From an uncultured Acidobacteriota bacterium (GTDB taxonomy: Bacteria > Acidobacteriota > Thermoanaerobaculia > UBA5066 > Gp7-AA6), in NCBI GenBank assembly GCA_963815865.1, contig CAWFIK010000001.1, forward strand, positions 14,493-78,492: DNA of 64,000 nt. The letters run 5' to 3'. The stretch's first letter is position 1. Every line of letters begins with the position of its first letter. Both the position numbers and the translations under genes were made by a program. Shown piece after piece: positions 14,851 to 16,065 of this stretch. The notes under the pieces were generated by a model that was not told the DNA's origin, did not search any database, and was given only the letters and a program-made list of their open reading frames with translations.

Positions 14851-15960
14851 TTACTTCGGGAGACTTCGCGCGCCGCGACCAGGGCTGGCCGACACGACCA
14901 GAGGAGCTAGAGGACTCCAGCCGCGCGCGCGACCTTCCGCGTCAGCGTCGGGATCGCCGCGCGGGCAAGCTGACGCGCGAGTAAACCAGCGCGCGTCCGG
15001 AAGGCGCGCGGCGGAGATCGCAAGCCGCGAATCCGGACCCGCCGGGAAGACTTCGACCCGGATGCGCCGGTTGACGACGGTGTGCCTCGCCGTCCCGGAA
15101 GCGCGCTCTTCGAGGACGAGGCCGAGGGGTCGGAGCTTCACCGCGAGGCGGCGGCGGGCCACCGCCGGAGACGGTCCCTCGGCGCAGGGGAACTCCCACA
15201 GCCCGTCGAGGAAGCTCCCGCGCCGCGGCAAGAGGAGCGTCCGCTCCCGGTCCTGCACGGAGGCCGCCGCGAGAAAGAGGTCGACCGGGCGCGGTTTCTC
15301 CGCGCGGCGCGGGTAGCGTTCCGGAGACCCCGAGCGCCGGGCGACGCACTCCTTCGCGAGCGCGCAGGAGTCGCAGAGCGGGCGTCGGGGAAGGCAGACG
15401 AGCTGCCCCAGATCCATCAGCGCGGCGATGAGATGCCCCGGAGGTCCCGAGGAGAGGAGGTCCCGCGCCTTTCGGCCGACCGCGGCGCGGTGCTCCCGGC
15501 GCCCGGCGGTTCCCGGGATCGCGAAGAGCCGCGAGAGGATGCGCGTGACGTTCGCGTCGGCGGCGGGAGCGCGCGATCCGAAGGCGAGGCACGCCACGGC
15601 GGCGGCGGTGTATTCGCCGAATCCCGGCAGCCGGCGCAGGAGGGCCGGGTCGCGCGGGACCTCGCCTTTGTGCTCTCGCAGCATCCGTCTTGCCGCGCGG
15701 TGGAGGTTGCGGGCGCGGGCGTAGTAGCCGAGACCCGACCAGGCGGCCAGCACGCTCGCTTCCCGGGCGCGGGCGAGCGACGCCAGGTCGGGGAACCTCG
15801 CGAGAAAGCGCTCATACCTCCCGCGCACCGCCCCGACCGTCGTCTGCTGAAGCATGACCTCGGAAACCCAGATGCGGTAAGGATCCTTGGTTCCCCGCCA
15901 CGGCAGCTTTCTCTTCTGGTGATCGGACCACGCAAGAAGCTCTCGGCGAATCGAACGCAA
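14851..15960 (-). CDS. mutY: A/G-specific adenine DNA glycosylase MutY (3' end probably frameshifted; likely true stop at 14907)
   Basis: PYRIWVSEVMLQQTTV, HhH-GPD region (LPGFGEYTAAAV), and the Fe-S cluster loop CLPRRPLCDSCALAKEC. After ...ARWFTR another frame reads RQLARAAIPTLTRKVARAAGVL*, a typical MutY C-terminus. Confidence 0.88.
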   Translation of the reverse strand: MRSIRRELLAWSDHQKRKLPWRGTKDPYRIWVSEVMLQQTTVGAVRGRYERFLARFPDLASLARAREASVLAAWSGLGYYARARNLHRAARRMLREHKGEVPRDPALLRRLPGFGEYTAAAVACLAFGSRAPAADANVTRILSRLFAIPGTAGRREHRAAVGRKARDLLSSGPPGHLIAALMDLGQLVCLPRRPLCDSCALAKECVARRSGSPERYPRRAEKPRPVDLFLAAASVQDRERTLLLPRRGSFLDGLWEFPCAEGPSPAVARRRLAVKLRPLGLVLEERASGTARHTVVNRRIRVEVFPAGPDSRLAISAARLPDARWFTRASACPRGDPDADAEGRARGWSPLAPLVVSASPGRGARSLPK

Positions 15961-16065
15961 TCGGGTGATCGGGTGATCGGGTCATCGGGTGATGGCCGGA
16001 GGGATCGAGGCGCAATTTCCGAGCATCAATGACCCGATCACCCGATCGCAGATCACCCGATCGAG
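15958..16065. repeat. Octad-tandem palindrome (unit GGGTGATC)
   Basis: ATCGGGTGATCGGGTGATCGGGTCATCGGGTGAT ... ATGACCCGATCACCCGATCGCAGATCACCCGATCG. There is a 19-bp perfect core stem, then a 7-nt bulge and further pairing. Confidence 0.9.

Follow-up and report, generated by a model that had tools for sequence, protein, structure and literature searches.

Dispersed families of hairpins with tandem-heptamer arms directly downstream of genes in Acidobacteriota

We analysed a stretch of 64,000 nucleotides (hereafter, the window) from an uncultured soil bacterium of the Acidobacteriota, class Thermoanaerobaculia (GenBank assembly GCA_963815865.1, contig CAWFIK010000001.1, positions 14,493 to 78,492 of the forward strand), and found in it a recurring palindromic element, a hairpin both arms of which are built of tandemly repeated units of 7 or 8 nt. 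The hairpins are absent from shuffled sequence, form dispersed families, prefer the 3' ends of genes, have a consistent polarity of their arms, and undergo fast gain, loss and turnover with the signatures of slippage. We lean towards the view that they are dispersed palindromes akin to repetitive extragenic palindromic sequences (REPs) and MITEs (miniature inverted-repeat transposable elements), with tandem-heptamer arms remodelled by slippage, and that they are tolerated in the transcribed spacers at the 3' side of genes.

Results

An earlier reading of the letters alone (the sequence-only reading) had proposed that palindromes with tandem-repeat arms recur in the window. We searched for them with a detector that takes reverse-complementary 6-mers as seeds; these must fall on at least four parallel diagonals whose spacing equals one period, and each of the two arms must itself be periodic. 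In its strict form the detector found nine elements in the window and none in any of 30 dinucleotide shuffles; a looser form gave 13 matches, against a mean of 0.35 in shuffles. Tandem Repeats Finder (TRF) detected complementary arrays of 7 or 8 nt at all paired loci named by the sequence-only reading, and an inverted-repeat finder paired their arms. Ten loci, confirmed by eye, are true hairpins (Table 1), and the proposed architecture is thereby borne out. Folded as DNA or RNA, the loci had z-scores of -2 to -7.5 relative to shuffles, most of them being much more stable. The elements are 70-110 bp long, with a median arm of 31 nt (~4.3 units) and loops of 8-97 nt.

When SucD was queried against one genome per species, its closest relatives came from metagenome-assembled genomes (MAGs) of Acidobacteriota, those with a class name being Thermoanaerobaculia (top identity 92%). 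As a comparison set we fetched 80 genome loci from relatives (L001-L080, 1.32 Mb), 65 of them Thermoanaerobaculia-like and 15 more distant, the latter mostly Pyrinomonadaceae. The strict detector found 61 elements in this set and none after shuffling. Of the 65 Thermoanaerobaculia-like loci 20 had such elements, as did 10 of the 15 from further afield, and a period of 7 was seen in 57 of the 61; units of 8 nt occur at three loci of the window. Counts given out of 68 refer to the hairpins of the window and L001-L080 taken together.

Such elements might arise by chance or as an artefact of long-read MAG assembly, and many genes of the window are indeed split in a way typical of indel errors. However, the strict detector had no match in shuffles, and the same elements are found in independent short-read as well as long-read assemblies from many samples; we regard this explanation as refuted.

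The sequence-only reading had considered the units unrelated, and had taken their divergence as an argument against a single mobile REP/MITE consensus. As it had stated, there is no single consensus, since the 68 hairpins have 46 distinct consensus units. The units are, however, not unrelated: 36 one-mismatch links connect them, the largest component holding 28 units, as compared with 12.6 links and a component of 5 in letter-shuffled controls. A network so far above the controls indicates that the units are related rather than independent inventions.

Nor is divergence supported as an argument against mobile elements of the REP or MITE kind, since each unit type is a dispersed family with conserved idiosyncrasies of its own. 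The reverse complement of the element at 15958-16065 and the element at 29204-29293 have 37 nt in common, including an irregular TGCGATC unit; their loops differ. The motif of this GGGTGATC family is also found in L002, at a non-orthologous spacer. An exact scan for the 23-mer GGGTGATCTGCGATCGGGTGATC returned 100 metagenome stretches with ~80 distinct flanks; the 3' arm of these has a common consensus, TCAATCACCCGATGGCTCGATCACCCGATCACCCGATT, whereas their loops vary. The consensus element of the family is GGAATCGGGTGATCTGCGATCGGGTGATCGGGTGATTGA - loop - TCAATCACCCGATGGCTCGATCACCCGATCACCCGATTCC, in which the loop varies and an internal asymmetry of the arms is conserved, and the palindrome reaches outward to GGAATC...GATTCC; the search pattern for this family fixes the 5' arm, which creates an ascertainment bias for covariation analysis. 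Some copies of the GGGTGATC family lie within the loop of another heptamer hairpin, the enclosing arms being of the GAGAGTT or GTCGACT type. In one relative (L077) six copies of AAGGATG/AAGGCGG lie within 20 kb, and in two others (L045 and L055) one family occupies successive spacers of the sdh-suc cluster.

A base-by-base check placed nine of the ten window hairpins 0-21 nt from a stop codon, in agreement with the 0-25 nt that had been claimed; the tenth, at 4364-4440, is in the spacer of the rRNA operon, 59 nt past the end of the 23S gene and 12 nt ahead of 5S. The genes on either side of an element point the same way in 29 cases, converge in 9 and diverge in 3. In the GGGTGATC family the distance from stop to element is most often 2-4 nt, and some copies directly follow the 3' end of a tRNA. 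Two further ideas were rejected. The orientation of GGGTGATC elements relative to the upstream gene is not fixed (22 against 8, a bias yet no rule). The arrays do not act as frame-independent stop signals either: among the 68 5' arms, only 14 contain stops in all three frames and 26 contain none, whereas ~30 would be expected from composition-matched shuffled units.

The two arms are not equivalent in composition. The 5' arm has more G than C in 55 of 63 hairpins, the 3' arm being C-rich (binomial p ~1e-9), and this polarity applies on both strands because the elements are palindromic. The 12 nt ahead of the 5' arm are enriched in A, and T is enriched twofold in the 12 nt past the 3' arm, making up 31% against 15% in the Thermoanaerobaculia-like loci and 38% against 21% in Pyrinomonadaceae and other distant ones. 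The earlier statement that most of the elements lack a T-run is correct for the window, the T enrichment being a feature of the whole set.

The flanking A and T, the location directly after stop codons, and the occurrence of 9 of 46 elements between convergent genes and of few between divergent ones would all suit intrinsic, often bidirectional, terminators whose stems happen to consist of tandem repeats. We find this explanation distinctly improbable. One element lies between 23S and 5S rRNA and another between sucC and sucD, two genes that need co-transcription, and in at least these two places, the rRNA and the sucCD operons, the elements are not efficient terminators. Stems of ~30 bp with loops of 8-97 nt differ from the short GC-rich stem, 3-8-nt loop and U-tract of a terminator, and termination does not require a conserved arm sequence. 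Moreover, a scan for the terminator consensus flagged none of the elements, although it did find a canonical intrinsic terminator at 45108-45135 (+). The latter, a 12-bp GC stem followed by TTTTTTCTTG, stands after a gene of the OmpA family, so the genome uses ordinary terminators as well.

Comparison of orthologous spacers, which the sequence-only reading had recommended, revealed that close relatives do not agree on whether a spacer has an element, or on which unit it has. One case is the sucC/sucD junction, where the two genes overlap by ATGA (4 nt) in most of 60 relatives. In the window the junction holds an insert of ~136 nt with the hairpin at 41086-41197. A homologous insert is present in four relatives (L002, L003, L045 and L055); in these the 3' arm reads (CCTCCCG)n, while the 5' arm is made of GGGACTC or TAAGGCG or is missing. 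Unrelated array inserts occupy the same place in L050, and in L031 together with L040. The array inserts at this junction are of at least three types, each bordered by repeated ATGA(GC), so that elements have entered the overlap on three or more occasions. All units of the 3' arm have changed to (GTCCCGY)n in the window, and the match of this arm to the 5' arm has risen from 5/7 to 6/7. The sucD-ndk and ndk-spoU spacers behave similarly, having different units in different species, nothing in L003 and L002 (the hairpin at 42098-42189 being missing from the orthologous spacer of L003), and a decayed remnant in L004.

The number of units also varies at orthologous sites (for example, six in L090, and L137 as against L089), eight hairpins have arms that are each internally homogeneous and differ from one another at one fixed position, and higher-order repeats of 15 nt and 39 nt are present. 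Variation in unit number and fixed differences between arms are what concerted evolution driven by slippage leaves behind when the elements themselves come and go quickly. The slippage part of the generative mechanism suggested by the sequence-only reading is thereby supported. The 5' arm of the sucC-sucD hairpin lies within a 39-nt tandem duplication (41072-41150; a small GC palindrome plus three heptamers, twice), which provides two 5' arms for one 3' arm; layouts with several 5' arms were also seen in copies from metagenomes (L108, L126, L154 and L172).

These data also bear on an explanation in which nothing moves, namely that ordinary short terminator or stability hairpins grow in situ by slippage of 7 nt, with template switching at quasipalindromes that carries changes between the arms, and selection for a long stem. 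Polymorphism of unit number, arm-wise fixed differences, the 15-nt and 39-nt repeats and the gain in complementarity that came with the shift from CCTCCCG to GTCCCGY are all expected of such growth, and the arm units of L001 (AGATTGA) are similar to the sequence found locally at the start of ndk in relatives. Polymerase slippage has been proposed to favour 7 nt (Mrazek, relayed in PMC4679880), and heptamers, the commonest long simple repeats in bacteria, have been ascribed to it (Mrazek 2007 as cited in PMC4679880; PMC6344855). Growth in situ, however, gives no account of identical odd arms (TGCGATC, AAGGCGG) at ~80 unrelated sites and in different species, or of one family filling successive spacers of one genome, and we consider it unlikely.

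The elements of the window are listed in Table 1. The list given by the sequence-only reading stands for the ten paired loci; 34780-34815 is a lone arm and 45294-45325 a single array rather than a palindrome. At the GAGAGTC locus, the copy at 11575-11595 proved to be a second 5' arm, separated by a structured insert of 439 nt from the hairpin that begins at 12035.

Table 1. Tandem-repeat elements of the window and an associated insert (fold z-scores relative to shuffles).
Position	Strand	Feature	Setting and remarks	Fold z-score
4364-4440		Hairpin, unit AGTTYTC	5' arm 4364-4398, 3' arm 4409-4440	-6.4 (DNA)
11575-11595		Extra GAGAGTC 5'-arm copy	Split by the insert from the hairpin at 12035	
11596-12034		Structured insert, 439 nt	Inside GAGAGTC arm; terminal inverted repeat TAGTGGGTCA...TGACCCACTA	-8.4 and -9.9 (both strands)
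12035-12090		Hairpin, unit GAGAGTC	7 nt past stop (12098-12100) of minus-strand alpha/beta-hydrolase gene	
15958-16065	-	Hairpin, 8-nt unit GGGTGATC plus irregular TGCGATC	Member of the dispersed GGGTGATC family; directly adjoins stop (16066-16068) of minus-strand PaaA/PaaC-like gene	
29204-29293	+	Second GGGTGATC-family copy, opposite chromosomal orientation	20 nt past stop of FliI-like ATPase gene (27840-29183)	
34780-34815		Lone GTGAATT-type arm (ATCACCA x2.7 on + strand)	Between two minus-strand genes; truncated element	
41086-41197		Hairpin, 5' arm (GGGACTC)n, 3' arm (GTCCCGY)n	In the ~136-nt sucC-sucD insert	
42098-42189		Hairpin, unit GTGAATT	Begins at sucD stop, ends 17 nt ahead of ndk	-7.5
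42626-42699		Hairpin, 5' arm (AGTTTTC)n, 3' arm (ACAACTG)n	Between stops of convergent ndk and SpoU methylase genes; arms complementary at 6/7 positions, the difference being fixed	
45294-45325		Single TCGACTC array, no partner arm, not a hairpin	3' part of RluD-like ORF, inside or at its end; unit related to GAGAGTC	
49909-49997		Hairpin, 8-nt unit CCCCCAGT	Between convergent lipid A acyltransferase-like (+) and methyltransferase (-) genes; overlaps both stops	
53347-53435		Hairpin, unit GTGAATT	2 nt past stop of 1099-aa phosphodiesterase gene; homologous to 42098-42189, loop edge CCGCTGATTCACAAT included	-6.3
63374-63448		Hairpin, unit GAGAGTC	5 nt past dnaK stop, 6 nt ahead of hsp20 start	

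The 439-nt insert is bordered by a duplicated GAGAGTCGAGAGTCGAG, and has relatives of 72-77% identity in L091, L002 and L129. It matched no Rfam family, and the open reading frame (ORF) that overlaps it had no Pfam match. It may be an unrecognised structured RNA or, alternatively, a mobile element, non-coding and of larger size, with the hairpins as its target. With Rfam 15, only rRNA, tRNA and the group I intron reached the gathering score in the window, and relaxed searches on the hairpins and the insert returned nothing but chance matches to microRNA hairpins.

The window has a G+C content of 67% and starts with tRNA-Ile, tRNA-Ala and a 23S rRNA gene with a group I intron, followed by 5S rRNA. 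The 23S gene spans 3883 nt; its intron region (2427-3400, with the Rfam match at 2427-2641) contains a LAGLIDADG homing-endonuclease ORF at 2813-3301 (+; Pfam E 1.6e-23). Several conserved genes, dnaK (61460-63368), sdhA (37307-39097), mdh (35593-36616) and ndk (42207-42621), are broken into overlapping ORFs in different frames; they are probably not pseudogenes but the result of indel errors in a long-read assembly. Between dnaK and hsp20 (hairpin region 63374-63455), no Shine-Dalgarno sequence is visible before hsp20, and the placement of the hairpin resembles that of the RNA thermometer of a small heat-shock gene. Similar spacers after stop codons also hold a palindromic repeat family without tandem units, TGTCATCCTGAGCGAAGCGAAGGATC ... 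GATCCTTCGTCGCTGCGCTCCTCAGGATGACA, found at 54557-54656 of the window, at 11323-11401 of L005, in seven copies in L154, and in L095, L135, L149, L169 and L173; the copy in L005 occupies the ndk-spoU spacer, in which other species have a heptamer hairpin.

Discussion

The sequence-only reading had not recognised the elements as a described class of repeat; the architecture, however, has a close match. Genomes of Xanthomonas have ~185 arrays of GGGAATC each, mostly of four units and at a mean distance of 28 nt from the upstream ORF, and 70-75 convergent pairs of arrays per genome are able to form stem-loops; the arrays are rare between divergent genes, vary between species, and their function is not established (Rehm et al. 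2015, PMC4692102). As in Acidobacteriota, these are heptamers in arrays of ~4 units, most of which are paired in inverted orientation, the G-rich array coming first whichever strand is read; they lie between genes, near the stop of the ORF upstream, seldom separate divergent genes, and vary in length between related genomes. In Xanthomonas, however, there is one unit type, read as a G-quadruplex former (GGGNATC), whereas here there are many, mostly without G-runs and some of 8 nt, and the families have irregular units that are conserved, as well as consensus arms; the phylum of the host also differs. In the literature we found no description of these hairpins in Acidobacteriota. The architecture is already known from Xanthomonas, and what is new is its multi-family, phylum-wide form with a conserved consensus in each family.

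Cyanobacteria reportedly contain short tandemly repeated repetitive (STRR) heptamers, which Mazel and co-workers are said to have described in 1990; Vioque is said to have reported, in 1997, STRRs in helix P12 of RNase P. Heptamer arrays of TAACTGA are found in Beggiatoaceae and cyanobacteria (MacGregor, PMC4679880). Both kinds consist of heptamers repeated in tandem between genes, a genome having several types of unit, and CCCCCAGT and the CAACTGA/AAACTGA units of the window resemble STRR1 (CCCCAGT) and TAACTGA. STRRs can also sit inside genes of stable RNAs, which may be compared with the copy between 23S and 5S. Yet STRR and TAACTGA repeats have mostly been described as direct arrays, TAACTGA lies just upstream of start codons, and neither hairpin pairing nor adjacency to stops is among their defining traits. 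A cyanobacterial link through enrichment of HIP1 (GCGATCGC) was rejected, with 10 occurrences observed and 9.25 expected. In prokaryotes no intergenic periodic repeat is more abundant than the tandem heptamer, for whose function there is said to be no clue (Mori et al., PMC6344855).

The dominance of period 7 in acidobacteria, as in the arrays of Xanthomonas, cyanobacteria and Beggiatoaceae (PMC4692102; PMC4679880), might point to cooperative sites for a protein that covers ~7 nt of single-stranded RNA or DNA per subunit (cold-shock proteins or oligonucleotide-binding folds of the S1 type), or to G-quadruplex elements as proposed for Xanthomonas. Indeed, CspB binds one heptamer per protein (noted in PMC4679880), the 5' arm is consistently G-rich, and arms of ~4 units match the preference in Xanthomonas. 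However, at least six units coexist in the 64-kb window and 46 overall, so no single sequence is recognised; most units (such as AGTTTTC, GTGAATT, GAGAGTC and GATTTGT) have no G-run, so quadruplex formation is not the general property; and pairing of the arms would hide single-stranded sites. We consider explanations of this kind very improbable. The combination of many unit families, hairpin pairing, base-precise placement at stops and fast turnover rules out G-quadruplex formation or recognition of a single unit as the shared property, and makes dispersal plus slippage the leading model.

Among dispersed palindromes, the elements share with REPs and with REP doublets forming hairpins (REPINs) high copy number, extragenic location and organisation into dispersed families; like these and the bacterial interspersed mosaic elements (BIMEs), they come in several families per genome, lie in transcribed spacers after genes and within operons, and are polymorphic for presence and absence. 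A REP is, in contrast, an imperfect palindrome of 20-40 bp without tandem-repeat arms, as compared with 70-110 bp and arms of ~31 nt here. The GTAG or CGTC tag characteristic of REPs is not enriched: of the 68 hairpins, 7 have GTAG/CTAC (background 0.05 per 16-mer) and 11 have CGTC (background 0.21) no further than 8 nt from an end. Nor did we find, in the window and the fetched loci, an association with REP-associated tyrosine transposases (RAYTs). A collapse of the units onto one REP or BIME consensus with a RAYT, which the sequence-only reading had named as contrary to its view, was not seen: the units number 46, and no RAYT turned up in the window or in a motif scan of 1.93 Mb, the scan being a weak test. 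With MITEs such as Correia, RUP and ERIC, the elements have in common that they are short, non-coding, dispersed and nested, have inverted ends (here the arms) and give long RNA hairpins. They differ from MITEs in that neither a defined target-site duplication nor a related autonomous insertion sequence was found, and in that the ends are tandem units of varying number. RAYT-like transposases (TIRYTs) with families of long terminal inverted repeats have been described in Acidobacteria (Di Nocera et al. 2013, PMC3733652).

Several results weigh against our preferred reading. No transposase- or RAYT-like gene was found in the window with Pfam, and the scan of the 1.93 Mb of fetched loci for the HUH motif likewise found none, within the limits of that test. 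In a limited sample, no autonomous partner or cargo was seen between distant arms, distant inverted pairs of arms merely bracketing ordinary genes between two complete hairpins. Apart from the ATGA(GC) repeat on both sides of the sucC-sucD inserts, which would be needed under selection alone, we saw no clear duplication of a target site, and none at sucD-ndk. Some arms resemble neighbouring unique sequence, as in the sucD-ndk spacer of L001, which hints at an origin in situ, and homogenisation could be due to gene conversion instead of transposition. The strong polarity of the arms is left unaccounted for, no explanation that we tested covering it. Finally, a folding advantage of the sense strand through G:U pairs was not detected (sense more stable in 20 of 32, Wilcoxon p 0.42), which gives no support to a role as RNA.

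With these points in mind, dispersal followed by slippage would proceed as follows. The elements, small non-coding palindromes of 70-110 bp with arms of ~4 units and a variable loop, would belong to related families that make up one acidobacterial superfamily. An enzyme or some copying process would place new copies in transcribed spacers directly downstream of genes. Replication slippage would then rapidly add, remove and homogenise units within an arm, and copying from arm to arm, or selection, would hold both arms largely complementary. The elements may persist because a self-contained hairpin that extends from the stop codon to the next ribosome-binding site would spare operon expression. 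They might even be of benefit, by protecting the 3' ends of mRNAs or by weak bidirectional termination.

Base-precise placement extends to the tightly coupled sucC/sucD junction and to the rRNA operon, and these are concrete loci at which effects on operon expression can be tested. The elements are also a practical hazard in annotating and assembling acidobacterial MAGs. As a wider and rather speculative suggestion, which we hold to be improbable as it stands, the intergenic heptamer arrays of bacteria could be the termini of mobile hairpin elements, a widespread class not recognised before, with an enzyme of the host or the element that reads a 7-nt register and inserts at the 3' ends of transcripts. 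If this were true, the mechanism could be solved in the Acidobacteria, where many families would be active.

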